Positions 12,938 through 54,340 of a DNA stretch of 64,000 nt are shown here, in pieces. The position numbers and the translations under genes were made by a program. The notes beneath the pieces are model-generated. The model searched no databases, was not told the DNA's origin, and saw nothing but the letters and a program-made list of their open reading frames with translations. The stretch's first letter is position 1, and each line of letters opens with the position of its first letter. Source of the stretch: Chiloscyllium plagiosum (taxonomy: Eukaryota); NCBI RefSeq assembly GCF_004010195.1, contig NC_057748.1, positions 17,346,885-17,410,884 of the forward strand. The letters run 5' to 3'.

Positions 12938-13063
12938 TCTTGAAGAAGGGCTTATGCCCGAAACGTCGATTCTCCTGTTCCTTGGATGCTGCCTGACCTG
13001 CTGCGCTTTTCCAGCAACACATTTTCAGCTCTGATCTCCAGCATCTACAGTCCTCACTTTCTC
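12938..13063 (+). mobile_element. Short Penelope-related insertion (family A) with hammerhead-like core, 14-bp TSD CTCTCTTTAATTAT
   Basis: tTGAAGA-AGGGC-TTAT-GCCC-GAAAC-GTC at 12940-12967; TSD at 12924-12937 and 13064-13077. Confidence 0.7.
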
Positions 13064-13968
13064 CTCTCTTTAATTATGCCTTGATCCTGTTCTGTCTCTG
13101 TATGTTCTTTTTTCTCTTGTCGACTGTCATCCTATTTTCTTCATTGCACCCACCTTATGGGCTTACTTGGCTGAAATGAGCTCCGTTAGATAAACACCTA
13201 CTCCAATAACGTTCTCTTCTAGTATTTGCAATCTCTTGAATTCATTGCTTGTCTCAGTCTTTCTCTCAGAATATTTAAGCTTTTGAAACACAGTATTCCC
13301 ATATCCAGTGTTACCTAAACTTTTCTTTTTTCCTGTTGTGACTGTATGAGACTTGTGAATTTCAGTGTCTGCTCATTGTGAGCAGGGTGGTTAAGGAGCT
13401 GAAACTGTGGTGAGGGCAGCACTGGGACAGAAATCACAAACTTCTGCTTCTGGCCTCTGAACCAATCACTGTAGGCCCTAATGTAACCCACATCCATGGC
13501 TGGGCTTGGAGCAGGATGTGATGCTAGGGAGAGGGGACTTTGAGAATCCTACCTCTTCAGTGTTTTTGAAAAATTTGAAGCAGGACTCAAGTTCACGAAT
13601 GATCCATTAGGCCATATTCAGTTTTTATTTAAAACCAGGGCTTTAATGAGGCTCCTCAGCTGCGTGGCAACCGTTGTTGGCTTGGAGCTCCTGACCCCAC
13701 CAATCGCCGTAACCCACAGTTTGGGATGCTGTGCCCTCATTACTTGCCTCCTGATTTAAACCATCACTTTATCAATCTTTCTTTCTTCCTTAATCTCCTG
13801 CTTAGTGGTTATGGTCCTTTACCCAAGTTAGTCAGTGCAAAGTAATCCCTAATTTGGTGTTTGATCAGAGTTTGCAGTATCTGAGTTAAAATCCAGCCTG
13901 CTAATTTTTGATCATCCTCACCTGCTGTTCTGACACTCACCCATCTTCTTTTGTTCTTCTCAAAACAG

Positions 13969-13990
13969 GAAAACAACTTGATGGAATATG
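13969..13990 (+). CDS. DESI1: DESI1 exon 2, 22-nt micro-exon (GKQLDGIW)
   Basis: Pyrimidine tract + cag acceptor, gtgagt donor; frame continues from exon 1. Confidence 0.93.
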
Positions 13991-14114
13991 GTGAGTTAAT
14001 CTGTGAAATTTCAAAACTAGTCTTTCACTTCAGCAATCAAAGAGTTGTATATTTTTGCATTAAAATAATTCTTGCACGTGTGTCTATTTAAATGTGAATT
14101 TGCTCCTCCTTCAG

Positions 14115-14184
14115 GCACACTGCAATAGTTGTCAACGGAGAGGAGTTCTTCTATGGGTCGGGTGGAATAGCTAATTGTCAGCCA
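14115..14184 (+). CDS. DESI1: DESI1 exon 3 (HTAIVVNGEEFFYGSGGIANCQP; catalytic His)
   Basis: 70 nt, AG/GT boundaries, completes the GIWHT catalytic His motif. Confidence 0.95.
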
Positions 14185-15671
14185 GTGAGTATTTTCTTTC
14201 TACTTTCTGAATGTTTTATCCATCCATACTTGCCTCATCTTCAACTGATTTCATGTTTGTGCATCAACCCTCCTCTTAAAGGGGTAAATGAAGCTGAATA
14301 CTAGCCAATGTAGCAATTCATTTTCAAAAGAAATTCTCATACAATCTACAAGCACAATTGGGAAAACCTATCTCCAGAATGGAATTGATTCTTGCCTTTG
14401 AATACTGTGATCATCATGTTTTCTGGAAATCCATCAAATGTCATCTTTGGGAGCATGTGACTTAGTAGGTCATTGTCCCTCGAGCTGGCTCAGCCGTTAA
14501 GGTCACAGATCACAAATTTCACCTACCCCCATCTATCCAAATCTATCTATGCCTTAAAAGTATCCACGATACTCTATGCAGTAGAGAGTTTCAAGTCCCT
14601 CGAGGAGAAAATTCCCTATTTCCATCTTAAATGAGAGATCCCTAATTTTTAAAGTGTGTTCCCCAGTTCTTATCTGACCCACAAAGAGAAGCATCCTTTC
14701 AGTTCTATCCTGATAATTCCAATCAGGGTTTTCTTTGAATGGGGTCACTTCTCATTCTTGTAAACTTCAATGAGAATAGGCCCAGCCTATCCAACCTTTT
14801 TCCTACAAAGATTACCCTATCCCAGGTATCAGTTGACTGAATCTTTTTTAAACTCCTTCTAACATGACCTGCTTTACAAGAAACTAAGGACATGGCCTTC
14901 ACACCCTCTTCTGGAATCTTGCTTGGCTGGTTGATCAGCTGCATAGGGAAAGCTAAGACTTAATTCTGGATAGTCCTCAAACAGGTGTCTTAGTTTGTAA
15001 AAGTGGCCTAAAGTTCCCTAAACCCCACCAACACAAACCAAATATTCACAATAATGCTGTTCATGCTCTCATTAACCTATTATGATCAAACTGAAATGCT
15101 AGGCATCAACTCTGTCTTTATAGCAGCTGTGGTGTTAATGATCACGTTTAGGAACCCTAACAGCATTGTGTCTATTTGCATCTCAAGTATTGCTGTGGTT
15201 CAAGAAGGCGGCTCACCGTTACCTTTTCGGGCACTGTTGGGGATGAGCAATAAACATTGGTCAAGCCAGCATCTCCCAAATCCTGAGAGAACAAGAACAA
15301 AAAAGTCCCCATTCACTTTCTTCTCCCTGATCTAGGGATGCTGAGTTAATTTAGCTGTTTCACTCGCTACAGTATCAGGGGAGCTAATATTTTGGTGATG
15401 TTCGTTGTAATGTCATCACTTGCATTGCTACATTCCTTTTGACTTCCATTCCTGATGAATTAAAGTCCTGATACCAACAATGCTAGAAGTATACTTGTGT
15501 TGTGTAATCTTCCCTAAATTACTGATTTGAGTGACCTATGTGGGAAGGACAGGAAATTTGACACTCACAACAAATTTATGATAATGGAATGTATTTAACC
15601 CAGTATCTGTATGATATTGTGGCCATTTTCTTTATTATAATAGTCTTGTGTTTCCTCTTTCTGTTCCCAAG

Positions 15672-15781
15672 GGAGGGACTTTACTTGGGCCACCTGACTC
15701 TGTCATTGATCTGGGGACAACTGAAGTGACTGAGGAGTTAATTATGGAATATTTATCCTCTCTAGGAGAGTCAGCATTCAG
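15672..15781 (+). CDS. DESI1: DESI1 exon 4 ([37 protein letters not shown])
   Basis: 110 nt, aag acceptor, gttagt donor, close to the mammalian DESI1 sequence. Confidence 0.95.
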
Positions 15782-16965
15782 GTTAGTTCCTCTTTGCAGT
15801 CTGTGCTTTTGCAGTGGGCCAACTTAATGCGTTGCCTAGAACTGAATGGCCAGAACGCCCATGTCTTTGGGGTCACGAGCAGGCATAAACAATGGCTGCA
15901 CTTTCATCTGTATATTAAATCTAGCAACTGTGCACATATCTTGTCAGGTATTTGTGCTGTAAGGACGTTTGTTGTAGAAAGTAGTATGTAATTGCATCTG
16001 CTGCCAATGGAGGCAATGTTGTACCAAAGGATGGCAGATAACATTAGTGAAAAAGACAATTTGTTTGTAGCCGCTGCCTCGTGCTGTGGAGGTCGTTCTG
16101 CAAGCACCACTGTAATTAGTTCATCTGTTTACAGTTTGTGTTTGAAGGGTATAGTGGGTGTGCGCTCTTCGGGCAAACTGAAGTTGTAACCTCTTGGGTT
16201 TGCTTAGTAGTAAACATTTGAGGCCTAGTTTCTCCTTATTACGATTGCAGTAATGTCTACTACATATGTGTCATGTTTTTAGTTCTATGTTGCATTTTAC
16301 TAGCATTCCAGTGAGGTCAAAGTGGAAATTTGTTTCTTCATCCTCTGATTTTTTTTTATCCAGATAAATTTTATCTACTGTATTGCCATTGTTTGTTGTC
16401 CTCTCAAAATATGTCACTTTTGTAATTTCTCCACATTGAGCTTCATGCCGTGTGTCTGCCTATTTCATCCAGAAATCAAAGCCATTTGGATTTGGATGTT
16501 GAGCGAAGGATGAATATTGGTGTGCTGTTCAAACAGTGCTGAGACAGCAGAGAAAGTCCTTGATTTAAAATGCCCACTCAATATCGTACTGCATATTTAT
16601 GTTAACCAATTATCTGATTTTATTCAATACACTGAGATTTCATCGACTTTTCATTAATATCTGGATGCATGCATTGATGCAATAAGAGGTGTGGAGTAAT
16701 TGCAAAACTATTTATTTAATGCAGTAAGCATTGATCAGGGTAAATATTCTCTCCTCCCTGAATCCACAGTGAAGGATGAGGGCTAGGATTGCACTGACTG
16801 GGAGTGTGATGGAGACAGAATCAATTGTGGCTTTAAGGGGAGGAATGTACACAACAATGACAAAGGGTTTTGAAGGGGACACGTGCAGGGACAACTGCTG
16901 AATGGTATTCCTTATTGTAGTGGTTGTGATTCTGTGACACCTCTCACTTTATCATTTTGTTGCAG

Positions 16966-17088
16966 GGGAGAGTGCTACAAATTGTTTGAACATAATTGCA
17001 ATACATTCAGTAACGAAGTTTCCCAATTCCTCACTGGGAAGAAGATTCCGTCGTATATCACTGACCTGCCTTCTGAGGTTTTATCAAC
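16966..17088 (+). CDS. DESI1: DESI1 exon 5 ([41 protein letters not shown]; catalytic Cys)
   Basis: 123 nt, HNCNTFS catalytic motif, AG/GT boundaries. Confidence 0.96.
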
Positions 17089-17229
17089 GTGAGTACATTT
17101 CCCACTGAGGTGTTAATCACTCTGCATACTTCGAAGGCATTGACCCATGTTGGGCTACTGCAAGAGTCTCTGCAGCATGACTACAAAGACCACAGTTCAT
17201 AGCCTTGACTTGTGATCTCTGCCCTTAAT

Positions 17230-17530
17230 GGCGGCACGGTGGCTGAATGGTTAGCACTGCTGCCTCACAGCACCAGGGTCTCAGGTTCGATTCCAGCCTC
17301 GGGTGACTGTCTGTGTGGAGTTTGCACATTCTCCCCGTGTCTGCGTGGGTTTGCTCCGGTTTCCTCCCACAGTGGGTAGGTCAGGTGAATTGGCCATGCT
17401 AAATTGCCCATAGTGCTAGGTGCATTAGTCAGAGGGAAATAGGTCTGGGTGGGTTACTCTTCGGAGGGTCAGTGTGGACTGGTTGGGCCAAAGGGCCTGT
17501 TTCCACACTGTAGGTAATCTAATCTAATCT
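17230..17530 (+). mobile_element. HE1/V-SINE-type SINE in DESI1 intron 5
   Basis: ggcggcacggtggctgaatggttagcactgctgcctcacag head through taatctaatctaatct tail. Confidence 0.88.
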
Positions 17531-18045
17531 TAATTTCTTTGGCCTTCATGGTCTAGGGAGGAACTGCCAGCCAGATTCCCAGGTGATTCCTGCTAGAAAG
17601 TATATGTACTAATCTCCTCCTGTAGGGAAGGAAATCCCATCTGGAAATCACACCGAGATGTGATTCCATACCCACAGCAGTGTGGCTGCCTCTTAACTGC
17701 CCTCTGAAATTGAAAGCCATGAATTCAAGGGCAATAAGGTTGGGTAGCAAATATAGTAAGATTCACATTCCATGAAATATTAAAAGGAGAAAAGCATCAT
17801 GGCAGAGTAGGAGCAGTTTTCCTTGGCGATCCCTCAGTTGAGTAACCCAGCAGCATCTGCTGCACTCACATTTAGCGATGGAGCCAGGGAATCGTTGGTG
17901 TTCACGGAATCCAATACCAGCAGAGGACAGGTTTCTTTGTAAGGAGGGGAAGGGCAAAAATGGAAAAAGAGACCTTTTTTTAAGAAAAGTGATATTTTTT
18001 TCTGTAATGACTAACATCTTTGTTCCTGTTTTATTTTTCCATCAG

Positions 18046-18136
18046 CCCTTTTGGCCAACTCATTAAGCCCATCCTGGACTCGGTTCAGATTCAGCCAGTG
18101 GGAGGAAGCAGCTTCAATGATCAGAATCCGAGTTAG
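18046..18136 (+). CDS. DESI1: DESI1 exon 6, coding part (PFGQLIKPILDSVQIQPVGGSSFNDQNPS*)
   Basis: Acceptor ttttccatcag; TAG at 18134-18136 followed by a second TAG. The six exons total 501 nt = 166 aa + stop. Confidence 0.94.
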
Positions 18137-21100
18137 TAGCTGCAGTCCAGAGAGCTGCTGACTGCAGGGACGTGTACAGTCACTGGCCTCACAGAACTAT
18201 ACAATGATTTTCCAAAAAACAAATCCCCTTCAAGCATCTTTCATCTCATATCTGACTTAACGTAGAACGTTAAAAAGTGGTAGAAATGCTTTTTTAAAAT
18301 CCATTTGAAACATGCATCTAATACAGATTGCACTGTAGAATTCAGTGCTTCTATCAGGTTGTTGTCAGCTCCCTTTTGTCAACTGTCTTTGAATAAGCTG
18401 TAGCAAGCAGCAGTCATGAGAGATTGATTCCTTGCTTCTTTCACAATGTATTTAGCCAGCCAGTACCCCTCCCACCCCCCCACCCTCCTCCTCCTCTTCT
18501 GAAAGAGGCCACCAGCATGGAGACCTTAAAGGTGTTTCCGTCATTGTTATGCCAACATCATTGCCAATGCATTGACCAATTCAAGGGGTAGTGTTTGCAG
18601 TGTTGTCAGGGTTTGTTTAGGGATAGCTATGTTGTATGTGGGAAGGAAAGATATACTTGAGTCACCTTGCTTTTCATATCATGCCATGGTCTGATGTGTG
18701 CACTTCAAATTGCTGCCTGCCCTAACCCAACTTCAGAATCCTCCCACATTCGGGAGGAGAGGATCTCGCCTGTTTTCACAGTCCAGTTCAACATGGTGGG
18801 AGGATTTCCCCTTGCTCAGCCTCCCATTCTGCTTCGGCTGACACCAGCTTCCACGTCCCTTTTCTTTCTGGCACTTGGCACTCAGCTGTGGCTTTAAGTG
18901 TCAATGAACCTTCTAGGGGCTGCACTCCGTTAGTAGCGTACTTCCCCAGGAGTATCGTGTATCTATCAGCACTCGGCTGCAATTGAAAGAGATGTTGGTT
19001 CGTTTTTTTTTCTTTCACCTGATCAAATCAGTAGATTAAACTTGAGCTGAAATCATGAGAGTCCCAGTTTCAGATTACTTCAGTCCACTTTGTTTCTTGC
19101 TGTAAATAGTTGCTCTGTCCATCCCCTTGCCCAGTATATGATACTGGGCAATGACTTCACAGGGGCAGCTGGTCACATATGGAATGGTGAGTGCAGACAG
19201 CTTGTTGGACTTCAGAGCCCTTGCTCCCAGACATGACACAATTCTTGCCATGTATCCCTATGTACGTATTTCTCCCCACAGCTACAGGCCAGCAGTCAGA
19301 AACATGAATCCTGGGTGGTGTACATACTCTGTCTCCCCTAATCCATGAGGTTGCACCTCTGCTTTTTTCACACCCATTCCATTTGTGACCAACTAATTCA
19401 CAACTTGGGGAATAAACCAGCTGTTTTCTGTACAGCTCAGTATTGGCCATCCCTGCTTTAATGTTTTAGACCAGGGGCTGCCCCAATGCCAATGGACAGA
19501 ACAGCCAGCTGCAAGGGTTCAAACTCCTCCAGCCTCTAGTTATCCCAGTGGTATGGATTATTACACCACAACCTCATCTAGTGCAGGATTGTCTAATATG
19601 TTGGCCAAAAAAGTGATCATTTGGCATTATTAGGTGTGGCCTCTATTCACAAGAGTTTGCAACGTAAATTCGAAAACTTTAACCTTTTTATCCAATTAAT
19701 TCTCATGGAGTGCAAGTGTTTTGGTTTGATTGTACTTCACTTTTTTGGTTCCTGAATGATGGCAGATGTTTGTTAAACAAGCCTATTGTGTGAGGTGTAT
19801 GTGAGGCTTCTTGTTCTAGCTGTAGCCAAACATGGCCAAAATGGTGTTGCTGTTGCCACTCCCTGTGTAATTAGGCAGCCTGACACAGGTAGTGGATAAT
19901 GCTGGATGCTCTCTTCCTTTCTCATGCTCTCAGTACATCAGTTTATTTATTGTTGCTCAGTAATGCCATGGTATTGCAATGGTGTGGGTTGGACAGGCAC
20001 CAAAAACACACTCAACTGAGAACATGATCCTGCAATCCTACTCATCTCCTTCCATTTCTTAACAATACACGTTCAGTTTCCCAGAATCAGGCAGGACTTT
20101 TTAATATTTCCAGCTACTGACAGTCGAGTCCACCCCAGTGGCCCAGCAGACTATGCTGCCTTGGGTTCTGGCAGTGAGTTTGCCATATTTGTAAATTTGT
20201 TAATATAGCAATCAGTTTGAACAAGTCAGCTACAAAATTCTCAAGTGCAGGGCAGGGTTTGAAAACTTATTATTGGTATGATATAAAAAGCTTTCCTGTA
20301 TTGGTGTAATTTTGTGGAAATTGGGAGCATGGTCTTGAACCCTTAATTGAGTAACTTCACCCAGTTGGATGCCATTTGCCATGGAAAATCATGTGCAGAG
20401 TATGAACCCCCAGCCCTTCAGCAGAACTATCTCAATGAGCCTAAACTTCAGTGAAATCTCAATGCAGCTTGGTTTAATAAAGTCTAATTATACTCATTAG
20501 CATTGTTTGGAAGTAAAGTTCTATAATTCTGTCTCAATTGAGCTGAAGGATTGGGAATTCAAATTGAGTTTAATATTAGAGATTTTCCGACTTGAAATGT
20601 TTTCTCTTTGTAACTTTGCTGTTGAGGGGTCAGGGACTGATCTAACTGCAAGCAGTGAAGCCAATTGTCAGCAGTTGGCATGGAATACGCAAACAAAAAT
20701 AATTGAGTGCAGTGCTGCAGTCTCTTGGTGACTTTTTCTGTCTTTTACCATGGCAACTGCAATCTTCAGAGCAAATCCAACTGCCCTGTTTTAATTTCCT
20801 GCCTCTGCAGGTTTGGCTGCTTGAGATGAGAACTTGCACAGTGATTTCTTTGGCGTTGTTCAACATCGTACAGTTCTGCCATTGTCTGAGTAGCATTAGG
20901 TGGTTTGGGTGTGGGGGGAGACACCAGAGGTTTTGAAAGTGGTTTTCATTTTTTGGGATGGGTGTGTCACTGGCAAGACCAGCATTTCATAGCCCTAATT
21001 GCACCAAAGCTGCCACCTTGTTCTGTTGTGGTCCATCAGTATCTGCTGCAGTTGGTTACAATTGGGTATTTGCTAGGCTATTTCAGAGGGCATTGAAGAC

Positions 21101-25240: not shown

Positions 25241-25947
25241 AGTCTAATCTTTATGTTCTGTGAGACATTGGCCTGCTATTTAGTTAGTTAGTGCACTGCT
25301 GTATGTAGCAGGGTATGTATTTTCTGCAAACTTCCAGAAGACATTGAATCATGATCCACATAAGAGACTGTTTAACTAAGATTCAAACTTACGGAACTGA
25401 ACACTGTAAGTTGGGTCAACCGAGAGAAAGGGTAAGTCATGAGTGCACACTCTTTGGACTAAAGCTACTGGTGGTGATTCAAATGAACCTGTATCCAGGG
25501 CCTCAACTCTTCATAGCATCTTATTAATGGCTCAAAGTACAAATGTGAATTTTCTGACTAAATTCAGATTGGTAGTGGAGGCTGGGTTGTTGCTGTGTGA
25601 AATTGCACAATGTTGGTGGATTGAAATCCAACCATTGCACATTTTCAATGTGGGAACAGGTCCGTTTCAGTTTTGGCCCAGCCTTCAAAAGATGAAAAGC
25701 TAGAAACAATGACCCAGAGAGATTTAGGGATTCGACTCCAAAGATCACCAAAATGCAAGAACTGCAAAACCTGTTCACAACTGTTACTGGTGATGCTGAA
25801 ATGCCGGTGTTAGACTGGGGTGGACAAAATCAGGTTACAGTCTGACAGGTTGGTTTGAAATCGCCAGCTTTCAAAGCACTGCTCTTTCTTCAGGTGAAAT
25901 GGGGACTTCACCTAGTGAAGGAGTAGCACTCGGAAAGCTTGCAATAT

Positions 25948-26250: not shown

Positions 26251-27157
26251 ATTCAGATAAACCAGTTGGACTATAACATGGTGTTGTGTGACTTCTGCCA
26301 ATTGTTAGTGGAACTTTGGCCTTTATAGCTAAGGGACTGATATATCCACAAGGAGGTATTTTTGCAGCTGCACAAAAACCTTGTGTTACTGCCACCAATT
26401 TGGTCCACACCAGCCAACCAGCCTGCCTGAGGAGTCCGAGTTACTAAACCAATTTACACTTTGACCTGTATGTTATGGATAGTGAGGGTTGAAGTTCCAG
26501 GCCATCATGTAGCTGACCAAGAATCTCTCTCACTCTAACCAGCTGCCATTAGTATGTCTAGATGACTCCTCTTCAGAGTTCTGATGAACAGTCATCTCGA
26601 CTTAAAGTTATCTTCACTCTCTACAGCCGCTGTGGTTTCCAGCATTTTTTATTTGTTTTCAGTACAGACTCGAGTATCTGCGGTGATTTGTCCCTGCCAT
26701 CAGTGTGTGTGTGTGTGTTGGGAGATCTGCAGGATGATAATATGTACATTTGGTATCTTATCCAGTTAGCTGGGGGTGGGGTTCAAATCTGAAACCTGTG
26801 TCTCAGGGACTGAAATGCCCCCTCCCAACTTGCTTTAAAAATATATGGATTTTTAAAATAGAGATTTTAGTTCAAGGGCCAATAATATTGAATGCTCCTC
26901 GTACCTGGAAAGAGGGGAAGGAAGTCTCCCAAAAACAAATTGTGCTAATTTTATTTGCTGGCTGCGATGAGTCATTGGGTTTGTGTAACTTGCCTGACCG
27001 TTGACTCTCGGGTGTGATGGAGAGAGAAACCACACAGCTCCCTCCCCTTCTGTTCCTCTGGCATGTGATCGCTGTCGTCAGTTCGAGGAGGGTGTCAGTT
27101 TCAGAATGCGGTGATCCCCGCGGATCCTGATGTGGTAGAGGGAAGGAGAGGAGGTTC

Positions 27158-29211: not shown

Positions 29212-29329
29212 AAAATCACGCCTGAGCTGGACGAGTTTTTCCAGCGGCTCCGGACCAAGGTGAAGATCGGTGTGGTGGGTGGCTCTGATTACATCAAGAT
29301 CGCGGAGCAGCTGGGGGAAGGAGAGGAAG
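29212..29329 (+). CDS. PMM1: PMM1 exon 2 ([39 protein letters not shown])
   Basis: 118 nt, AG/GT boundaries. GGSDYxKIAEQLGxGxEV and the exon length match PMM1 rather than PMM2; synteny with DESI1 and POLR3H agrees. Confidence 0.95.
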
Positions 29330-30514: not shown

Positions 30515-31192
30515 TGTGACCGTGTACCAGCAGTGCCAGTGCAGGCAGTGGCTCAGGAAGGCAGCTCACTACCACCTTTCCAGTGCAACCAGGGACGGGC
30601 AATAAACGACAGCCCACATTGCCAATTCACCCATCACAAGTCAATACAAAATGGACCTGGATGGAATGGCTCAGGATCTTGAAGGGGCGATACTAAATCC
30701 TCCTCTCTTTCTGTGACCGTGCCTGTCCTATCGAAGATGTGCAGGTTAGGATGGATTGCCCCATGCTGAATTAGGAGAAAGTGAGGACTTCAGATGCTGG
30801 AGATTAGAGTCAAAAGCGTGGTGCTGGAAAAGTCTGGCGCTTGATTGTAATCTTGTGACCGTGTACCAGCAGTGCCAGTGCAGGCAGTGGCTCAGGAAGG
30901 CAGCTCGCTACCACCTTTCCAGGGCAACTAGGGACGGGCAATAAACGACAGCCCACATTACCAATTCACCCATCACAAGTCAATACAAAATGGACCTGGA
31001 TGGAATGGCTCAGGATCTTGAAGGAGTGATACTAAATCCTCCTCTCTTTCTGTGACCGTGCCTGTCCTATCGAAGATGTGCAGGTTAGGATGGATTGCCC
31101 CATGCTGAATTAGGAGAAAGTGAGGACTTCAGATGCTGGAGATTAGAGTCAAAAGCGTGGTGCTGGAAAAGTCTGGCGCTTGATTGTAATCT
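30515..31192. repeat. 339-bp tandem duplication (30515-30853 / 30854-31192)
   Basis: Units start tgtgaccgtgtaccagcagtgcc and end cttgattgtaatct, with only a few substitutions. ORFs at 30756 and 31095 start identically, 339 nt apart. Confidence 0.92.
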
Positions 31193-31694
31193 CACCGTGA
31201 AGCCCCTTCCATGGAAGCCCACCTTGAAGAAGTTCTCCTCCTCCCTCTATCACTCAGCCCCCCCCCCCACCCACACACATGCCTGACGAAGAGCATATGC
31301 TTGAAACGTTGACTCTTCCTGCTCCTCAAATGCTGCCTGACCGGCTGTGCTTTTCCAGCACCACACTTTTTGACTCTGCCCATGTTAAATTGTCCATAGT
31401 GTCTAGGGATATGCAGGTGAAGGGGTTAGCTATTGGGAAACACAGGGTTACAGGGATTGGGACTGGGAGGGATGCTCTATGAAGGGTCAGTGCAGCCTTG
31501 ATAGGCTGAGTGGCCTCTTTCTGCACTGTAAGGGTCCTACGATCTGAGCACTGTGCCCCACGATTACATGGAGCTGAGGATTATCAGATGATCCATGATC
31601 TTAGTGAATGGCAGGCCAGATGCAGTGGGCTGAATGGCCTCCTTCTGCTCTTCTATCTTTACAATCTCACCCAGCTCTCCGTTCCTTTCCACAG

Positions 31695-31771
31695 TCATTC
31701 AGAAATTCGATTACGTCTTCGCCGAAAACGGAACAGTCCAGTACCGAGACGGAAAGTTCATCACAAAGGAG
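31695..31771 (+). CDS. PMM1: PMM1 exon 3 (VIQKFDYVFAENGTVQYRDGKFITKE)
   Basis: 77 nt, FDYVFAENG motif, AG/GT boundaries. Confidence 0.95.
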
Positions 31772-32931: not shown

Positions 32932-33384
32932 GCAAAGTTTGGGAGAAGATTTGTAGCTCGGGTGCTCGTTGTTGTGGTTCTGTTCGCCGAGCTGGGAATT
33001 TGTCTTGCAAACGTTTCGTCCCCTGTCTTGGCCGACTAGCCACGAAACGACACGACCAGCTATCCTTAGTAGCCACACACGCAGATGGGACAACACTACC
33101 ATTATAGGGCAAGCCAAACAGAGAACAGCCAGGGAATTCCTAGAGGCATGGCATTCATCCACAGACTCTATTAACAAACACATCGACCTGGACCCAATAT
33201 ACCGGCCACTACAGCGGACAGCTGGAACTGACAACCGGAAGCGGCAGAGACAGGCCACGATAAATGCCAGAGGAAACATCACAGAAGCGCTTCACAGGAG
33301 GCTCCCAAGCACTGAGGATGTCACCTAGACAGGGGACGAAACGTTTGCAACAAAAACTTCCAGCTCGGCGAACAGAACCACAAC
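32932..33384 (+). mobile_element. Penelope-like element 3' fragment (GIY-YIG C-terminus + pLTR) with inverted 5' pLTR piece
   Basis: WDNTTIIGQAKQRTAREFLEAWHS...INKHIDLDPIYRPL; 32970-33028 is the inverted copy of 33327-33384; hammerhead-like core at ~33312-33344. Confidence 0.85.
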
Positions 33385-38780: not shown

Positions 38781-39281
38781 CACATGCTGACCCTTGGCAA
38801 TGACACACCCATCCCAGAAAAGGATTGAACCAAAATACAAATGGAATTCTTCCCCTCACGTGCTCAGATTGACGTTAATCAGCCCTTTTGCCATCATTGG
38901 AGTTATTGTTTTATCCTGGATCCTGGTTAGTCAGAGCCGCACAACACAGACAAAGTCCTTCAGCCCGTCGGGTCTGTGCCAACCCAGCTACACGAGTGCC
39001 CCTTTGCTGTACTTGAATTTGAATGGTATTTCTGGCGCCCTCCCGGACATTTTGTAAATGTTGTGAGGTTTGCTGCCTCTATGGCCCTCCCTTCCGGGTG
39101 CCTGTGGCCCAGCAGGGATGGTGAGTGGTTGGCTTGGTGCTAGCCACTGGCTAAGCCAAGGTGGCCCTGTGTTTGGGCTCCAGCTCAGTCTCCGTGAGGC
39201 AGCTCGGGGGGCTCCAGGCCACTCATGGTCGATCAGCTGGATCCGGTTCTGACCTCACTGTGGGACATGTCTCTCTTTCAG

Positions 39282-39381
39282 GGGCACCTTTATCGAATTC
39301 CGGAATGGGATGCTGAATGTATCTCCCATCGGCCGGAGCTGCACCCTGGAGGAACGTATCGAGTTCTCCCGGATTGACAAG
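39282..39381 (+). CDS. PMM1: PMM1 exon 5 ([33 protein letters not shown]); exons 6-8 not found
   Basis: 100 nt, conserved PMM motif [20 protein letters not shown] boundaries. Confidence 0.96.
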
Positions 39382-39772
39382 GTAACCCTGGGGTGTGGGC
39401 TGTTGGGGAGTGGGGGCAGTAAGATCCTGCACCATTCAGCATGCGCTACCCTCCTGAATCCTCCCATGGGGGGAGGGGTAGGGGGCAGGAAGGGTAATTA
39501 GGGACGGGCAATAGATACTGGGCCCGGCCAACGATGCCCATGTCCCCAGCAACAGTGAACACCAGACACTGAGGTTCTTTTCCTGTGGAGGCCATTCAGC
39601 TTCTCAAGCCTGCTCTCCCTTCAGTGAGATGGCAGCATTTTCAGTCCTTCTAACACCCCGATTCTGTCATGGGTTTTAAGGCTGCAGGAAATGACCTGAG
39701 CACCAATCAAAGTTCTTTTTCCAGTGAACCTTCCCTCTTCAGGACCAAGGGTGACATGCTTCCCCCAACCCC

Positions 39773-40272: not shown

Positions 40273-40394
40273 GCTGATCTGATAATCCCCAACGCTGATT
40301 TCTTGCCTCAACCCAGAAGCTCTGAGTTCGTGTCCCACTTCCAGGGTTTCAAGAGCAAGGAGATGTGCTCATAATGAGGTCAAACAGGTACAGC

Positions 40395-44325: not shown

Positions 44326-44589
44326 ATGTATAGCACATTATTTACATGTGAACAGTCCTTGAATATAGTTCTGCTGCATCAGAGATAGTTATCAGAGTGT
44401 CAGCATCTCTGACACCCCCCCTTGTAATCTGTCAGCCAGGACCCCCTGATTGTACCAGATTAACAGCCCCAATCAGGGAACTCATATTCCAAGCTGGCTG
44501 ACCTCATTACAATCACTACAAGTTCAAACTGTAAAATTTATTTCTATGACTTAAAATCTTTACAGAAAGCTCAATATTTGTGTAGGGAT

Positions 44590-45494: not shown

Positions 45495-45574
45495 CCTCCC
45501 CCTCCCCTTAAAACAACCCATCAATATCCAAAGATGGCTTCATTTTAAAACCCCTTAATCTTATACTGTTACAA

Positions 45575-45740
45575 CAGAGGAGCCTCAATTGTCCGGCATT
45601 CAATTATCGGAATTTCGGATTATCCAAACAAGATCTCAAGGTCCCGATACATGGCTAAACTATTTTATCCAGCATTCCATTATTGGCATTAGATTAACTG
45701 AACAAACACTCGTGGCCTTTGGATAATCGAGGTCCCTCTG
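45575..45740. mobile_element. Tigger/pogo-like MITE inside the LTR element
   Basis: Imperfect TIRs cagaggagcctcaattgtcc / ggataatcgaggtccctctg, followed by TA. Confidence 0.7.
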
Positions 45741-46578
45741 TACTCTACAACACACATATACATTACATTAACTATAAACATGCAAACGTGCACAACTACA
45801 TTCTGTTCCAGTCTGGTGTACCCCTGCCATCGAACGCCTCCATTTCTCATCCAAGCCTGGACAATACATTGGCAATCAACATCCTCTCGTCCTGCCACTT
45901 GAACAATGTTCAAATTGAGCAGCTGTAACATCAAGTTCCATTTAACCAGAGTGGCATTTTGGTCCTTAAATTTCTCCACAAACTTCAATGGGCTATGATC
46001 AGTGTATATGATTGTCTCAGATACGTTACTGGTAACATAAACATGAAGTAACGCCTACATCAAGCTCAAAGTCTCCTTCTCAACCATCGAATATTTCTGC
46101 TGATGAACACCTGATAGGTCTTTCTAATTTCTCATCGTCTTCTTGCAAGAGCACAGCACCGACACCCACATCACTCACATCGATAGCCATCGTGAATGGT
46201 TTTGTTTAATTAAGAGTGGCTAATACTGAGGCAGTGGGTAACACAGCTTTCAGGCTGTCAAACACCTTCTGACAGTCCACTGTCTACTGAAACGTCTTGC
46301 CTTTCTTTAGCAATTCAGTGAGGGGAGTAGCCACACTGTTAACATCTGGTAAGAATTTTCGATAAAATCCACTCAATCCCTGGAACTGTAGTAATGCTCT
46401 TTTTGTCGATGGTATGGGAAATTCACCAATTACATTCATTTTTGCATCCCATGGGGCCATTTGTCCCTGCCCAATAGCATGGCCCAGAAAGGTGACTTGT
46501 AGCCATGTTTATCACCAAGCCCACCTTCTGAAGTTGATTGAACAATTCTGATAAATATTGCAGATGGTCCTCCATGTA

Positions 46579-47413
46579 CAGGGGAACCTAAATTATCCGA
46601 ACGAGGTGGGCGGGGACTATTTCATTGGGATAATCGAATATTCAGTTAATCGATTAAATGCCTTTCCTCTGGGGCTTGGAGTCCAANNNNNNNNNNNNNN
46701 NNNNNNNNNNNNNNNNNNNNNNNNNNNNNNNNNNNNNNNNNNNNNNNNNNNNNNNNNNNNNNNNNNNNNNNNNNNNNNNNNNNNNNNNNNNNNNNNNNNN
46801 NNNNNNNNNNNNNNNNNNNNNNNNNNNNNNNNNNNNNNNNNNNNNNNNNNNNNNNNNNNNNNNNNNNNNNNNNNNNNNNNNNNNNNNNNNNAGACACATA
46901 CACAGACAGACGCGCCCCCAACNNNNNNNNNNNNNNNNNNNNNNNNNNNNNNNNNNNNNNNNNNNNNNNNNNNNNNNNNNNNNNNNNNNNNNNNNNNNNN
47001 NNNNNNNNNNNNNNNNNNNNNNNNNNNNNNNNNNNNNNNNNNNNNNNNNNNNNNNNNNNNNNNNNNNNNNNNNNNNNNNNNNNNNNNNNNNNNNNNNNNN
47101 NNNNNNNNNNNTTTACCACAAACGTTTGACAGATTCCACATTTACCTTGTACAGGACAATGTTGAAGAGATTATCTGGGGAATTTGGGGTTTAGGTACAC
47201 ACCTGTGTAGAACTCCAGGGAGAGTGTGGGGGGAGAGAGAGAGGGCAGGAGGTCAGTCATTTGGAGACGGTGCCTGTTTAATTACTGTAAACAAAAGACA
47301 TGATCACTGTTGGAAAAACATCTTTGATGTAATGTTTCTATTGGGACCTTGAGATCTCCTTCGGATAATCCGATTTTTGGATAATTGGTATTCAGATAAT
47401 CGAGGTTCCACTG
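46579..47413. mobile_element. Tigger/pogo-like non-autonomous DNA transposon interrupting RT just after YIDD (contains N gaps)
   Basis: TA + caggggaacctaaattatccga ... tcagataatcgaggttccactg. The RT frame (DDLITFSQ / TW..DHLQ) rejoins across it. Confidence 0.75.
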
Positions 47414-50400
47414 TCTGACTAAAAGTTATCAGGTCATCGATATATACAGCACAGTTGGGTAATCCAGCAATTACCCTATTGGTCAGTTCTGAACTGTGGC
47501 TGGTGCATTTTTCATACCAAATGGCATGACTTTAAACCGATATAGTCCATTAGGCGTTTTGAAAGTTGAAATTGCCTTTGCTCTTTCTGATAAAGGTACC
47601 AGCCAGTATCCTCTGAGCAAGTCCAACTTAGAAATGTAAGTTGCTTGACCTACCTTTTCAACACAGTCTTCCAAACGCGGAATGGGATATGCATCAGCTT
47701 TTGTAATGGCGTTGACTTTGTGATAGTCTGCACATAACCATTGGGTACCGTTTGGTTTTGGCACCTTTACTATGGGTAAGCTCCAGTCACCGTAATTCAC
47801 TTTGATTATGCCATCTTGGAGCATGTGTTCAACCTCCTTTTGAACCTGTGTCAACTTTGGAAGGCTATGCCTATAAGGATGTTGCTTAATCAGAACAGTA
47901 TCTCCTATACCTACATTACACATAATTAGGTTAGTACTTCTCACTTATTCCTACATATCTCCCCATGTGATAGTAATAATTCAGGTCATTTCAATTTTCA
48001 TCGGGAAGGTAACTCAATAACTTATCCCAATTTTTGATAACTTCCTCATTGTTCAATTCAATTTGAGAAATGTCCAATTCACAATCCTCTGAACCTGGAT
48101 CTTCCCTCTGTGTTGTAACCAATAACCCAGTCTCCTTTGGCTTTCCTTCCCTGACAAAATACCTTTTGAGCAGATTCATAAGACACACTCTGTGAGATTT
48201 CTTCCTGTCTGGAGTCCTTCTCAAATAGTTCACCTCACTCGATTTCTTTTTGACTTGTTAAGGACCTTGCTTTTAAAGGTTCACCTATCACTGGAAGTAA
48301 CACTAACATCTTATCCCCAATAGCAAAGTTGCGAGTCTTTGATTTCTTGTATGCTTCCTGTTTCATTGTAGGCTGTGTGATATTTCTAAATGCTGTCTCG
48401 CCAACTCCCCCACTTTATTTAATTGTTCTCAAAATTTTAACACATAGTCCAAACATGTGGTCTCTGAATTCTGACTTGTCAATTTCTCCTTAATCAATTT
48501 TAATGGTCCTCTCACTTCATGCCAAAAACTAATCCAAATGGACTGCATTTGGTGCAAAAAGCAAAAAACCAAATTGATCTGATCGCAAAAAGCACAAATG
48601 GAATTCCCTTATCCCAAACATCAGGATAGTCCTGACAATAAATCCTCAACATGGTCTTTAATGTCTGATGCCACCTTTTGCGACTCTGGATGGTACACAG
48701 TAGATTTGAATTGTTTTATTCCTAAGCTGTCCATAACTTCCTTGAATAATTTTGGTGTAAAGTTTGACCTTTGATCTGATTGTATCTCTGTCGGTGAAAA
48801 ATTTGAGTAATTCCTCAACAATCCTTTTAGCTATGACATTGCACAATCTAGTCTAGTCAACACTTCCATTATTGTTAACAAATACTGGTTACCACTTTTT
48901 GTTTGAGGTAGAGGTCCTATGCAACTAATTTCGACTGTTGTAAAAGGTTCCTCAAATGCAGGGATAGGGATTAAAGGTGCGGGCTTTATTACTGCCTGTG
49001 GTTTTCCAATTACCCGACATGTCCGGCAAAATTCAACTATATCCAGGTCAGTAAAAATGATTTTGTATTTTAGCCTGAGTTTTTCTCACTCCTAAATGAC
49101 CCCTAGAGGTAACTCATAACACCTCCCTTCTGTAACCCACTAGTAATACAACTTGATGACCTTCTGCCCATTTCTCATCTGCCTGAATATGTGATGGTGT
49201 CCATTTCCTCATTAAGAAATCATTTTAAAGATAATAACATTCAGGGACACATTCAGACTCCTTTTCTGTGTACGCCTTTTGATACAATTGCTTTAAATGT
49301 TCCCCTTTCTGCTGTAACTCAGTTAATTTCTCTGAACTAAATATGTCTGCATTGTCATCTATCTGCTCCTGGTTTGTATCAACCATCTGATCAATTCCAC
49401 TTCAACTTCCTTATCTATACTCTTTGATCTGTTTTTCCTGTTTTAACTGGTGACTTTGTGACCCCGTTACCACACAGTCAGGAAAAATTCCTGGATATGC
49501 ATCCTCAATAGTTCAGTTGTCTGAGTTTCCACTGGCTTTTCAACCACAGTAGGCAGCACTCCTACCTGTGTACCAGCTGTATCATTAGCAAGGACAAACT
49601 GTACTCCCGGAGCTGAGCATTTGCCAGTACTCCTGCCATGACTTCTCCACTCTTCTGTGGACACTCTAACCTTACCTGACAGAATTGAGCACTTCTTGTC
49701 GCACCATGAATCCCAATTACTGGCACCTTTTCTGGCAGTAGTCCTTCAGAAGTACATATCACAGATTGGGAGGATCCTGTGACTCTTAATATTGCAACCA
49801 CTTTACCTGCTGCTCCTAGTCTATGTGAGTAAACTTTACGATTGCAGGTAAGTGGTTTAAGAAGATCTGGCACTCCCTCCGTAACCAACCTCTGACCAGC
49901 TTGTACATTCTGGTGTAGCTTTCTAACCTCCATTGTGCTTTCTGTTACCACTCCAACAAAATTCACTGGCGTTTCCTGTTTTCCACATCTGGCTTCTCAG
50001 TGATCTTCCTAACCCACCAACGCTGCGATTTCATGTGGCCTACTTAATTGCAGTGAAAACAGCAAAGCTTTTTAACTTCTCTTTCCCCTTCAGGGATTTC
50101 CTTTTTACCCTGTGGTAAGTTATCCTTTTGATCTTCACCGAGATCTATCTTTCCCTTTCCACGTGAGGATTCCTCTTTTCCCCAAGTTCCATCCCTAAAG
50201 GATTGAAATTGACTTTGGAAGCCAAATATTGATTTATGGAGCAATTTATAACCATCAGCCATTTCAGCTGCTAATCTTGCGGTTTTAACTCTCTGCTCTT
50301 CCACACGAGTTCTCATTACTTCAAGAAGTGAATTTTTGAACTCCTGCCTTAGTGCCAGTTTCTGAAGTTCAAACTCCATCTCTTTCTTCCTTTCCTCTCT

Positions 50401-50861
50401 CTCCTTTTCTTTCTCTTCTCTCTCTCTTCCACTTTTTGTTCTGTTAAAGCGATTTGTTCTTCTTCTCTTTCCTCTGCTTTTATTTGTAATTCAAACTGTT
50501 TCATTTCTGTTGCCCTTTCCTTGTCTTTCGCCTCTAACTCAAGTTGCTTCATTTGCAATTCCAGCAAATGTAAATGCTGAGCTACTGCTGTAATTATCTC
50601 TCCTTTCCTCACGGAGGGAGGCAGCTCCAGCTCCAGCCTGTCTGCTAATTCCAGCAGCTTGGCCTTCACCACTTTTTGCAAAAAACCCCAAAGCCATTTC
50701 TTCTACCCCAAGGAAACTCTCGGTGACTGGAAGAGACATTGCTATCCCAAGCACTGTTTAAACCAATCGAATTCAATGCCCTACCACTTGCTGCCTTTGA
50801 CTCTGGCAACCCTAATCCCAAATCCGAACTATAGAACAAATCCTGCAAAGAGCCCCCAGTC

Positions 50862-51495
50862 TGTTATGGACCAGGCCAGGACTCTCCAAACATTTCAAGA
50901 AGGTAGCCCAGACCCTAACTTTGCTCATTGTTTTAAGCAGGTGTAAAGTGGATATTCCAGGAGTGATGCAGCTGGTCAAACCTCTTAGTTTTAAACAAAA
51001 TTGAATTTATTTACCAGATTATGGAATGAAATACAAACGAATACAGAATAACTTAGCCTATCCAAAATGCCGACAGACAATCCCAACTTAATGTTGCTGT
51101 TCCCAATACTTGCAATAATCCCCATAAATGCCCCTTGGCACGAAAGGAAAAATCAAACACAGGGTCTTACAGGAGAGAAGTCAGAGAGAGAGAGAGAGAG
51201 CGTACCAGCCTAAACCTGCTTCTTTGGGTCCAGCAGCTTTAAAACACTACTGCTATAAACCAAAACAAACCAGAGACAAGCTGAGTTGGGAGAACTGGCC
51301 ACTCTCCTTTTATGGTACAAGTGTTTGTTTTCAAAAACTTGAAAGCCTGTTTCCTGAGGTAATATCTGTTAGCTGTAATCAAACTGGCTTTGAAACCCTT
51401 CAACTTAGACCTTTTGGAGTCTGTGTATTTTACGAGTTCTCTGAAAAAAGAAGTCAGGGACACCGTAACCTTGTTAATGGAGCAGCTTTGTCATA
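50862..51495 (-). repeat. 5' LTR of the Gmr1-like element
   Basis: On the minus strand ends CCATAACA, followed within 3 nt by the PBS. Confidence 0.9.
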
Positions 51496-51749
51496 ATAGG
51501 GACAAGCTGATCCTGCTCACAAGGAGAACAAGAATGAGAGGACACAGATTTAAAGTTATCTGCAAATGAAACAAGGGTGATGTGTTTAAAAAATGTTGTC
51601 ACACAGCGAGTAGCTAGGGTCTGGAATACACTGTCCGGAAATGTGTGGAGGCAGGTTCAATTGAGGTATTCAAGAGGGTCATTCAATGGTTATTTAGATA
51701 GAGATGTAGTGCAGGGATATCAGAAAAGGTAGGAGATTGGTACTAGTCT

Positions 51750-52383
51750 ATAAAGAACAAAGGACAAAGAACCTTACAGCACAGGCCCTCCAAGCCTGCA
51801 CCAATCCAGATCCTCTATCTAAACCTGCCACCTATTTTCTAAGGAACTGTATCCCTTTACTCCCTGCCCATTCATGTATCTGTCTAGATACATCTTAAAT
51901 GACGCTATCATTCTTGCCCCTAAAACTTCCGCTGGCAACACACCCATCACCACCTGCGTGAAGAACTTTCCATGTATACCTCCCCTAAACCTTTCCCCTT
52001 TTACTATGAACTCATGACCCGTAGTAATTGAGTCCCCATCTCTGGGAAAACGTTTCTTGCCATCCACCCTGTCTACACCTCTCATGATTTTGTAGATCCC
52101 AATCAGGTCCCGTCCTCCCCCTCCCCTCCCAACCTCCATCTTTCTAATGAAAATAATCCTAATCTGCTCAACCTCTCTTCATAGCTAGTGGCCTCCATTC
52201 CAGGAAACATCCTGGTGAACCTCCTCTGCACCCTCTCCAAAGCATCCACGTCCTTTTGGTAACGTAGCGACCAGAAATGTATTCCAAATGTGGCTGAACC
52301 AAATTTTTATACAACTCTTGTAACATGACCTGCCAACTCTTGTACTCAATACCCCGTCTGATGAAGGAAAGCATGCCATATGC
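51750..52383 (-). mobile_element. CR1-type LINE 3' fragment
   Basis: AYGMLSFIRRGIEYKSWQVM...LVQPHLEY; DLIGIYKIMRGVDRVD. Confidence 0.88.
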
Positions 52384-52739
52384 AAATAATACTCGTTTGA
52401 AGAGCAATGACGGACTGAATTCCCTCCTGGATCCTAACAATTCTCTGATCTTGTCTCTCCCTCTCTAGAATTTTCTCCTAGTCAGGTGTCCATCACTTTA
52501 CTCACTCACAGGGTGAAGCAATCAAGCACTGCACAGGGATCTGCGATCTGACTAACTTAGTCAAACACTACAGTCCTGGTGTATGCTCACTCCATCAGCA
52601 ACACACTCAACTCTTAAGTGAATGATGTCTGTGCTGACTTGGTCACTTCCATCAAAAGACAGCTCTAAACCCAAAAGCTTTTAGTATAGGGAAATGGCTG
52701 TGGTGTCACGACATTGTCTTTGCAAGTGAGAACAAATGA

Positions 52740-54120
52740 ACGTACAAACAAAGTGCAGACGTAGGCCATTCGGCCCCTCAAACCTGCTCTGTCAGGCAAT
52801 GAGATTGTGGCTGATCTGATTGGGACGGCCAATCCACACCTACCCCCTATAAGCTTTCATCCCCTTTGCTTAACACAAATTTATCTCCTGCTTTGACAAG
52901 ATTCTGCTTCCAGCAGCTTTTCAGGATGAACTTTTCAAAAAGAAAATGGCCACATTTCTGTTTTAAATGGATTTTTTTTTAAACAATGACCTGTCGTTTT
53001 AGTTTCTCTCCTCAGAGGAAACATCCTCTCCACATTCACCCTCTCAGCCCGTCCAGGAGTTTTATATCCGTCAATCAAGTCACCTTTTGTCCTTCTAAAC
53101 TCCAGCAGAAAGAAGCTTAGCCTGTCCACCCTCCCCCTCACGAGACAACCTTTCCTTTCCTAAGTATTAGTCGAGCAAGTCTTCTCTGAACTGCATCCAA
53201 TATTGGACTCACCTATGCCCTGTGTAACCGAGCCGCAACATCCCTACACTTGTATTCAGTTCCCCTCATTCTACTAGCTTTCCTAATTACTTGCTGTACC
53301 TGCATACTAACCTTCTGTGATTCATCTATGAGGGTATGCAGATCTGTTCTGTACCCCTGAGCTCTGATCTCTCACCATTTGGATAATAATGCTTCTTTTT
53401 AAACCTTCTTGCCAAAATGGACAATTTCACATTTTACTCAATTTACCAAATCTTTGCCCCCTCACTGAACCTATCCATATCCCGCCACAGCTTCCTCATA
53501 GGATCCCTGCAGTACAGATGGAGGCCATTTGGCCTATCAAGTCAGCAGTGACCTTCTGAAGACCATCCCATTCCCCACCCCATCCCTGCACTTAGCATAG
53601 AGTTGAAAAAGTGTGGCACTGGAAAAGCACGGGCAGCGTCCGACGAGCAGGAGAATTGATGTTTCGAGTATAAACTCTTCATCAATCCCGACGAAGGGTT
53701 TATGTCCAAAACATTGGCTCTCAGGTTGCTGCCTGACCTGCTGTACTTTTCCAGCACGACACTTTTCGACTCTGCATTTGGCATAGCCAATCCACCCTAA
53801 CCTGCACATCTTTGGACTACAGGAAGAAACTGAAGTACTCTGAAAATAAAACCCACACGGATGCAGGCAGAATGTGCAAACTCCACACAGATAGTCACCC
53901 AAGGCTGGAATCGAGCCCAGATCCTTGGTGCTGTGAGGCAGCCAACCACTGAGCCACCCACACCACTCATACTCTCCTCACACTGTACTTTCCCACTTAT
54001 CTTTGTGTCATCAGCAAATTTGGTAAACTTACCACCTACCCCTTCACCCAAGTCATTTAAACAATTTGTAAATAGTTGAGGTATCAGCACCAATCTCTAT
54101 GTCACACTGCTCATTACATC
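52740..54120 (-). mobile_element. Old CR1-type LINE fragment with nested HE1-type SINE (~53505-53960) and family-A element (~53597-53775)
   Basis: KFADDTKI (ORF 53797..54093); LEFRRTKGDLIDGYK (ORF 52935..53141). Confidence 0.75.
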
Positions 54121-54122
54121 TT

Positions 54123-54340
54123 CGAGGAGAAAGTGAGGACTGCAGATGCTGGAGATCAGAGCTGAAAATGTGTTGCTGGAAAAACGCAGCAGGTCAGGCA
54201 CATCCAAGGACAGGAGAATCGATGTTTCGGGCATAAGCCCTTCTTCAGGAAGAAGGGCTTATGCCCAAAACGTCGATTCTCCTGTTCCTTGGATGCTGCC
54301 TGACCTGCTGCGCTTTTCCAGCAACACATTTTCAGCTCAG
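54123..54340. mobile_element. Palindromic family-A element, 15-bp TSD TGCTCATTACATCTT
   Basis: ~90-bp inverted arms centred near 54245; TSD at 54108-54122 and 54341-54355; minus strand reads CTGAAGA-AGGGC-TTAT-GCCC-GAAAC. Confidence 0.8.

Follow-up and report, generated by a model that had tools for sequence, protein, structure and literature searches.

Insertions and host genes in the window

The window, a 64,000-nucleotide stretch of the Chiloscyllium plagiosum genome, contains four short insertions with hammerhead-like cores, together with exons of two host genes (Table 1). A regex scan recovered all four cores claimed in an earlier note, two on each strand, with the letters given there, and the reading of the elements as retro-insertions with target-site duplications (TSDs) was borne out by the exact duplications at the 12938 and 54123 insertions. 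All of the insertions except the 12938 copy, three in total, are inverted pairs joined head to head, and the intact core is altered in all four, the 31283 core carrying C11.1>U and C17>U. In computed folds, the pairs at 53601..53773 and 54123..54340 each form one hairpin, at -81.6 and -166.2 kcal/mol, respectively. An Rfam scan of the window (E<=5) returned no hammerhead family and only hairpin-driven, miRNA-type matches with sub-gathering scores.

Table 1. Insertions, duplications and host exons in the window
Feature	Position	Strand	Remarks
Tail-only fragment, same family	9732..9775	-	No hammerhead core
TSD of the 12938 copy	12924..12937 (left), 13064-13077 (right)	.	Exact, 14 bp
Single-arm copy	12938..13063	+	126 bases; core (12940-12967, C3>U) and long tail of PLE pLTR; 92.9% identical to L158 5' pLTR
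Exon, PF05903 (DESI-like)	16964..17092	+	Downstream of 12938 copy
Exons, PF03332 (PMM)	29230-29316, 31688-31768	+	Either side of 31283 copy
Second copy of the 31112-31171 arm	30773..30832	-	Within local tandem duplication (30515-31192)
Duplication of second insertion	31099-31111 / 31379-31391		Decayed, 13 bp, 11/13 letters alike; read by eye
Second insertion, inverted arm	31112..31171	-	Long-tail end only
Second insertion, sense arm	31278..31378	+	Core 31283-31310 (older GAGC/GCTC subfamily) and short tail
Duplication of the old pair	53588-53600 / 53774-53786		Decayed, 13 bp, 11/13 letters alike; read by eye
Old head-to-head pair	53601..53773	-	Core 53658-53685 (-), C3>U and G16.2>A
TSD of the young pair	54108..54122 (left), 54341-54355 (right)	.	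Exact, 15 bp
Young head-to-head pair	54123..54340	-	Long tail and short tail; core 54221-54248 (-), G16.2>A

The placement of the insertions in introns holds for two of them: the 12938 copy is flanked by a DESI-like first exon (~4036) and the PF05903 exon, and the 31283 copy lies between the PF03332 exons. It may not extend to the copies at 53.6 kb and 54.2 kb, which lie past the last placed PMM exon (39280-39384); a tblastn search of the window and of the 40 kb that follow it found no later PMM exon. From synteny, the host genes are presumably DESI1 and PMM1 rather than their paralogs.

A coding Penelope-like parent element

The same ~130 bases that make up the short insertions form both pseudo-LTRs (pLTRs) of a ~3.1-kb Penelope-like element (PLE) with a reverse transcriptase (RT), a CX4CxxC linker and a GIY-YIG domain (locus L158, 93-96% identical), and the whole 126-base copy aligns with the pLTR of coding copies at 88-96%. 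In L158 the order is pLTR-ORF-pLTR, with a direct 173-bp repeat (90.8% alike) and cores 3,146 bp apart. L159, which has a direct 96-bp repeat, starts 3-4 bases ahead of CUGA and continues into the ORF, the upstream sequence of L024 and L027 encodes a GIY-YIG-end peptide, and L062 combines RT, endonuclease and hammerhead motifs in a single stretch. The DKG, YIDD and GIY-YIG-region motifs occur in that order in L158 and L062, that is, RT followed by a C-terminal GIY-YIG. Pfam matches to fragments (RVT_1, E 1.1e-3; GIY-YIG, E 5.2e-4) were both below the curated cut-offs, and two of the four fragments had no match. The CX4CxxC linker before GIY-YIG, read in both L158 and L061, fits Neptune or Nematis and does not separate them. 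No intact ORF was found among the copies examined, L158 itself carrying frameshifts.

The PLE origin proposed in the earlier note is upheld, the short copies matching the pLTRs of L158, an RT and GIY-YIG element. Its separate non-coding family is not, because every base of the short copies lies within the pLTR or tail of the coding element; an independent SINE-like family, likewise, would have no sequence of its own. Judged from sequence, the short insertions are the hammerhead-plus-tail end pieces of an abundant coding PLE.

Their suggested abundance is real. Counted as exact pattern matches, genome copy numbers fall from 97,186 for the tail through 33,364 for the 30-base core pattern, 3,052 and 1,015 to 74 for the ORF start. 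A reversed control of the core pattern gave 0 matches, so the cores are not due to chance.

Hammerhead architecture and the ends of the copies

The minimal type I hammerhead design with a palindromic stub is confirmed by the modal letters of 215 copies, which comprise CUGAnGA, GAAA and NUH, an extra base before stem II and G10.1-C11.1. The palindromic 15.2-16.2 stub reads ACGU in this family (family A) and AGCU in a second one (family B); two of the window copies have lost the palindrome through a G>A change. The candidate helix I has three pairs around a U-U mismatch, where the minimal PLE type has 4-5 pairs; in that form it is absent from the monomer's best computed fold, and its formation in the monomer costs 2.6 kcal/mol. 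Stem II is almost invariant (GGGC/GCCC) across the 215 copies, and the covariation previously attributed to it was overstated. One pair does covary (G-C to A-U), through one older subfamily (6 A-U against 0.4 expected). By contrast, decay accounts for GAGT/ACTC and GCTT: 2 of 100 copies have U-A as their fourth pair, against 1.7 expected from independent decay, and GAGT/ACTC was rejected as a compensatory change (Fisher p 0.67). G12 is altered in 39 of 215 copies, the same rate as neighbouring CpG bases, and nothing in the sequence therefore points to the intronic copies being working ribozymes.

The 3' ends form two clusters, about 90 and 125 bases past the first C of the core, which define a short and a long tail. 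Among 65 head-to-head pairs, 50 could be classified, and 45 of these join a long to a short tail where 25 were expected (p 2e-9). TSDs of at least 8 bp flank 38 of the 65 pairs, against 5 of 300 controls, but only 16 of 56 young single copies; they peak at 14-15 bp, and most copies are 90-220 bp long. The inversion points vary from copy to copy, which implies that the hairpins are not copied as units. Among the loci examined, copies are single or head-to-head, and there are no head-to-tail tandem arrays.

The 5' ends were counted in copies selected by their tails within the initial 2.6 Mb of a single contig. Both arms of each pair entered the count, 9 of 97 copies were left out because they bordered on N, and microhomology moves end positions by 1-3 bases. 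In this sample, 30 of 88 ends lie at -7 to -1 of the core (7.9% per base, where four bins off the core have 0.4-0.8%), 24 lie inside the core (0 to +11), a single one lies at the cleavage site (+27 to +29), and 24 copies read through past the core. Non-inverted copies alone retain the pile-up (12 of 42 ends, p 7e-7). With a single start at that site, cleavage-defined template ends are highly improbable.

The pile-up coincides with an initiator-like CATTC, 31-33 bases past a conserved TTTAT that stands at -35 to -37 in 60 of 73 long copies. CATTC is 95-100% conserved and the spacer between the two motifs varies; its conservation could equally reflect pairing, since the same letters make up the 5' strand of stem I. 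In family B, a canonical TATAAA lies at -38/-40, 12 of 30 ends fall at -11 to -1 and none at -12 to -70, and the pile-up carries ACAACCAC or ACAATCAC about 30 bases downstream of the TATAAA. The initiator match and the TATA spacing were judged against the usual consensus. A DPE match near +28 was unconvincing by eye, and in two single-arm cases, also read by eye, a candidate cap-derived G at the junction belongs to the target site. Sequencing run X21 gave no pile-up of molecule starts: 93% of 2,153 reads continue into unrelated sequence, and the loose ends at the -4 base are genomic junctions, as their flanks are mixed. A partial search of the published literature found no description of the family or of a 5' pile-up at the hammerhead.

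Origin of the short copies and comparison with known systems

The reading that we favour, at a probability of roughly 0.65, is that the insertions derive from the ends of a coding PLE with an endonuclease and that many of them start just before the hammerhead, probably because the RNA of the element begins there. Directed by the TATA-like TTTAT and the initiator-like TCATTCC, Pol II would begin 4 bases ahead of CUGA, and the hammerhead would make up the leading 32 bases of the transcript. The element protein would nick the two target strands at points about 15 bases from each other, with priming from two sites inside the tail; the anole element behaves in this way in vitro, both strands being extended and the template uncleaved (PMC11167929); the templates here are likely to be uncleaved too. 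Priming at the tail near the 5' end of the RNA would run off after 95-130 bases to give short copies, two such cDNAs could be joined into hairpins, and priming at the 3' tail would give longer, randomly truncated copies. The short copies, lacking the upstream TTTAT, would then probably decay neutrally, and the ribozyme would be constrained only in source elements. The ends within the core (24 of 88) are not explained by run-off alone. The hammerhead-at-start layout is not general, since transcription of Penelope in D. virilis starts before an intron, and the hammerhead comes only after that intron (PMC2377424, PMC4209133).

It is also conceivable, although unlikely, that the same parent produces the pile-up through its enzyme, either by RT stalling as it leaves a folded or dimerised hammerhead or by endonuclease trimming at the ATT of CATTC. 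The preference of the anole enzyme for ATT (PMC11167929), the position of the pile-up at the edge of stem I and the 24 ends within the core would suit such a process. However, the ends of family B accumulate at the same position with different letters and a TATA box upstream, stem I is weak, its formation costing energy in the monomer, the ends come after the stable stem II rather than before it, and 24 of 88 copies read straight through. Less probable still is a short non-coding retroelement of SINE or retrozyme type that propagates itself through mobilisation in trans, or in a softer form, promoter-bearing solo pLTRs that make short RNAs copied by the PLE protein. Short copies do far outnumber ORF-bearing ones, promoter-bearing solo ends are many (73 in the loci examined), and trans-mobilisation by pLTRs is described (PMC3846280). 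Against this stand the want of any sequence peculiar to the short copies, the lack of tandem arrays among the loci examined, inversion points that differ between copies and the missing TTTAT; the softer form cannot be told apart from the favoured reading by DNA alone.

We regard as highly improbable that hammerhead cleavage makes the template ends or that intronic copies cut host pre-mRNA. Retention of the intact core in 33,364 genomic copies, its persistence in source elements despite variation at N7, in loop II and at paired positions, and the sense orientation of two window copies in introns might be cited in its favour. Yet cleavage-site starts are almost absent, G12 behaves like any CpG base, all four window cores are mutated and two are held in hairpins, and hammerheads of the minimal PLE type show no activity on their own and little as dimers (PMC4209133) or depend on the protein (PMC11167929).

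Returning to transcription from the edge of the hammerhead, a fuller model falls slightly short of even odds. In this model for these vertebrate elements, a TATA/initiator promoter sets the RNA start on the 5' strand of stem I, which makes the hammerhead the first part to be transcribed, a single event in which a protein dimer acts at the two tail sites primes both target strands, ~100,000 stubs record the start site and twin-primed insertion, and the ribozyme acts as a cap-removing switch rather than in template processing. Because the stubs are so numerous, two points of the Penelope cycle become testable from sequence, namely the RNA start relative to the ribozyme and the origin of inverted ends that have a tail on one side only. 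With an RNA start 4 bases before the core, nothing but the capped first 32 bases could be lost by cleavage, which narrows the range of possible ribozyme roles.

As originally stated, the finding is ordinary: these are PLE ends with a published minimal hammerhead, and minimal hammerheads in pLTRs, inverted copies and tails have already been described. What goes beyond the literature examined is the 5' pile-up before the core, the CATTC/TTTAT spacing, the parallel in family B and the pairing of long with short tails. With endonuclease-bearing PLEs (PMC8557442, PMC3846280) the element shares an RT followed by a C-terminal GIY-YIG, direct pLTRs, heavy 5' truncation, an inverted copy at the 5' end, a 30-40 bp tail on one end and TSDs, but lengths of 90-220 bp predominate here and the 5' end has a preferred position. 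The CX2-5CxxC linker of Neptune and Nematis (PMC8557442) is matched, the clade being placed by motif only, and the TSD peak of 14-15 bp contrasts with the cases of 8-10 bp described for rotifers. Published minimal PLE hammerheads have in common with ours CUGAnGA, the extra base before stem II, G10.1-C11.1, the palindromic 15.2-16.2 without loop 3, a helix I that is probably short, mostly dispersed single copies of truncated PLEs and opposite-strand pairs; the available part of that account names no cartilaginous fish, and intact cores number at least 33,364 here against about 4,000-9,000 reported for coelacanth and frog.

The anole Poseidon element PAc (PMC11167929) likewise has two 3' end sites that define a tail, uses both target strands, and carries a hammerhead beside the ORF start with no ends at the cleavage site. 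However, it belongs to the Poseidon clade and its ORF starts at stem II, whereas about 40 bases separate the long tail from the likely start codon downstream of it here, and its main text contains neither a 5' pile-up nor an initiator at the hammerhead. Non-LTR retrozymes (bioRxiv 10.64898/2026.07.22.740005; PMC7229834), are reportedly also non-coding, hammerhead-bearing, PLE-related short animal repeats; they form tandem arrays in which every unit has its own hammerhead, whereas the copies described here are dispersed, single or head-to-head, and identical to pLTR ends.

Penelope-like parentage of the short insertions

The short hammerhead-plus-tail insertions (family A) almost certainly derive from a Penelope-like element (PLE). 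The first 30 genomic copies have their 3′ part in common but reach variable distances upstream, the longest extending into a peptide that resembles the end of a GIY-YIG domain, and pattern walking further upstream led to copies with reverse transcriptase (RT) and then endonuclease motifs in order. Pfam searches of fragments gave RVT_1 (E 1.1e-3) and GIY-YIG (E 5.2e-4), both under the cut-off, and no hit in two of four fragments. Before the GIY-YIG region lies a CX4CxxC motif, a linker type described as a mark of Neptune and Nematis in PMC8557442. One locus, L158, comprises an inverted truncated copy, a pseudo-LTR (pLTR; core plus long tail), a frameshifted ORF with a likely start codon ~40 bases past the long tail, and a 3′ end that carries a short tail and another core, the two cores lying 3,146 bp apart. 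Over 126 bases, the window copy at 12938-13063 shares 92.9% identity with the first pLTR of this locus, and over 91 bases 95.6% with the second. Thus, the link to PLEs proposed in the earlier note holds, whereas its separate non-coding family is not supported, because the same sequence forms the pLTRs.

The copies are as abundant as had been supposed: a 30-base core pattern matches exactly at 33,364 places in the genome of 3.56 Gb (reversed control, 0). Exact matches fall from 97,186 for a 33-base pattern behind the core (both arms of inverted pairs counted) to 3,052 for the endonuclease, 1,015 for the RT start and 74 for the ORF start; these ratios are rough, since each count uses its own pattern and N often interrupts long copies.

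Reading and a pattern scan confirmed all four hammerhead motifs of the window, and the 14-bp and 15-bp target site duplications (TSDs) are both exact; the remaining two insertions have 13-bp duplications, read by eye, with 11 of 13 letters identical. All but one of the four insertions are head-to-head pairs, and those at 53.6 and 54.2 kb are each predicted to fold into a single hairpin (-81.6 and -166.2 kcal/mol, respectively). The intronic location claimed for the family applies to two copies, one flanked by DESI-like exons and the other by PMM exons, both sense to the host gene; the 53.6-kb and 54.2-kb copies obtained no gene placement, and no PMM exon was found after window position 39384. 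Late PMM-family exon matches occur on the small contigs G000:C40401 and C95123. About 20 copies of a 200-350 bp interspersed repeat, which we take to be SINE-like, dominate the window, and the 31283 and 53.6-kb insertions appear nested within such copies.

Features of the window and the L158 locus
Feature	Location	Remark
PLE copy (L158)	G000:C2:9814000-9823000	full layout
Family B hairpin	window 5538-5706	
Family B hairpin	window 58989-59164	
Family B copy	window 25798-25893	
Family B copy	window 26258-26294	
Family B copy	window 3642-3706	
Diverged tail, further related family	window 1518-1587 (-)	~80% identity across 61 bases; core not observed
Local tandem duplication	window 30515-31192	repeats inverted arm of 31283 insertion plus flank
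Spacer between arms of 31283 insertion	window 31172-31277	~106 bases; no match to reference end
Interspersed repeat (examples)	window 6575-6900, 8541-8863, 58164-58788	

Ends of the copies and a putative RNA start

In the first 2.6 Mb of contig C1 (30 search loci and 40 fetched stretches), 97 copies were chosen by tail pattern alone; nine bounded by N were excluded, and the 5′ ends of the remaining 88 were mapped against nine natural long copies, one of which, serving as its own reference, was assigned -217 by hand. Counted from the first C of the core (position 0), 11 ends lie beyond -100, 10 at -100..-41, 3 at -40..-8 and 30 at -7..-1, followed by 24 at 0..+11, 7 at +12..26, 1 at the cleavage site (+27..29) and 2 at +30..43. 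Non-inverted copies alone gave 12 ends in 174 base-exposures versus 15 in 1,871 (p 7e-7).

The sequence TCATTCC, whose A occupies base -4, fits the initiator consensus, YYANWYY. Among 73 long copies, picked by sequence further upstream, a few of their loci overlapping and many from one subfamily, TTTAT stands 31-33 bases upstream of this A in 60, CATTC is 95-100% conserved and the spacer to TTTAT is variable. pLTRs are known to contain internal Pol II promoters (PMC2377424, PMC3846280). In sequencing run X21, the -4 base was the best-supported 5′-side loose end among those listed (107 reads), but its flanks were mixed, as dispersed copies within host transcripts would make them; no pile-up of starts was reported for that run. 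A single contig of run X1 (depth 4; L158:2464 to 2432) returns from the base just past the predicted cut to base -4, the two separated by one G; a tandem genomic copy could be its source.

Family B, a second hammerhead-plus-tail family with a 5-bp stem II and an AGCU palindrome (22,820 exact matches to its tail pattern), was examined after family A as a test of the 5′ pile-up. It shows the same pile-up: of 30 tail-selected copies, 12 start at -11..-1 and 8 farther upstream, with the stretch -12..-70 free of ends, and the other 10 start within the core or past it. Three of the four long copies examined have TATAAA at -38/-40. Two other minimal hammerhead variants (L166, L217), with GGGU/ACCY stem II, different loops and related tails behind, are further PLE families.

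The 3′ ends form two clusters, near +90 (short tail) and +125 (long tail). Among 65 head-to-head pairs from all loci, 50 were classifiable: 45 combine a long and a short tail (25 expected, p 2e-9), three are long-long and two short-short. TSDs of at least 8 bp flank 38 of the 65 (26 of them 14-17 bp) versus 5 of 300 random controls; of the young single copies, only 16/56 have such TSDs.

Transcription would begin at the 5′ edge of the hammerhead, short copies would be run-off products of priming at the tail near the 5′ end of the RNA, hairpins would arise when two cDNAs, primed at the two tail sites from opposite strands, are joined, and the template would not be made by cleavage. We give this whole account a probability of about 0.65. 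Stalling or endonuclease trimming could also pile up 5′ ends near the core, and we regard this as possible but doubtful. In D. virilis Penelope, helix I marks the end of an intron (PMC4209133), and one copy (L024:1463-1474) carries a splice-acceptor-like pyrimidine run ending in TAG ~27 bases upstream of the core, overlapping the TTTAT box; 5′ ends of the tail-selected copies do not cluster at such a site. A short family that copies itself would suit the abundance of short copies, but their sequence is that of the pLTRs, and we consider it improbable.

Decay of the hammerhead core

Every window core departs from the intact core at one or two positions, and an Rfam search of the window gave no hammerhead match. 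Core statistics rest on 215 copies that passed a 17-of-22 match filter, from 335 profile hits. Non-CpG variation, where frequent, falls mainly at N7 and loop II. Most copies have GGGC/GCCC as stem II; one pair covaries (A-U, 6 seen versus 0.4 expected), in copies of a single older subfamily, GAGC/GCTC (1,712 matches with a pattern in which two transitions are allowed as well). At the fourth pair, the first 100 of these matches have C-G 76, U-G 12, C-A 10 and U-A 2; since 1.7 U-A are expected under independence, GAGT/ACTC, offered earlier as a compensatory change, is decay, and the GCTT variant is CpG loss. The stem II covariation claimed earlier is thus confined to one pair of one subfamily, to which family B adds covariation between families, with AGCU instead of ACGU and a different stem II. 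Decay looks neutral: the 215 copies show no sign of constraint, with G12 changed in 39, G16.2 in 46 and G1.1 in 26. Hence, despite the sense orientation of both placed intronic copies, it is very unlikely that intronic copies work as ribozymes.

Comparison with known systems

The parent of family A, an EN+ PLE that carries a minimal hammerhead, is a new member of an already known kind of element. The modal core fits the minimal PLE hammerhead of PMC4209133, with its extra A ahead of stem II, G10.1-C11.1 and an ACGU palindrome, and without a loop 3. The definition of a retrozyme in bioRxiv 10.64898/2026.07.22.740005, which demands tandem units, does not cover family A. A literature search of main texts found neither family A nor a 5′ pile-up at the hammerhead described. 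The present analysis contributes the constant distance between TTTAT and CATTC, the test of TATAAA in family B, the count of long+short pairs and the linker motif.
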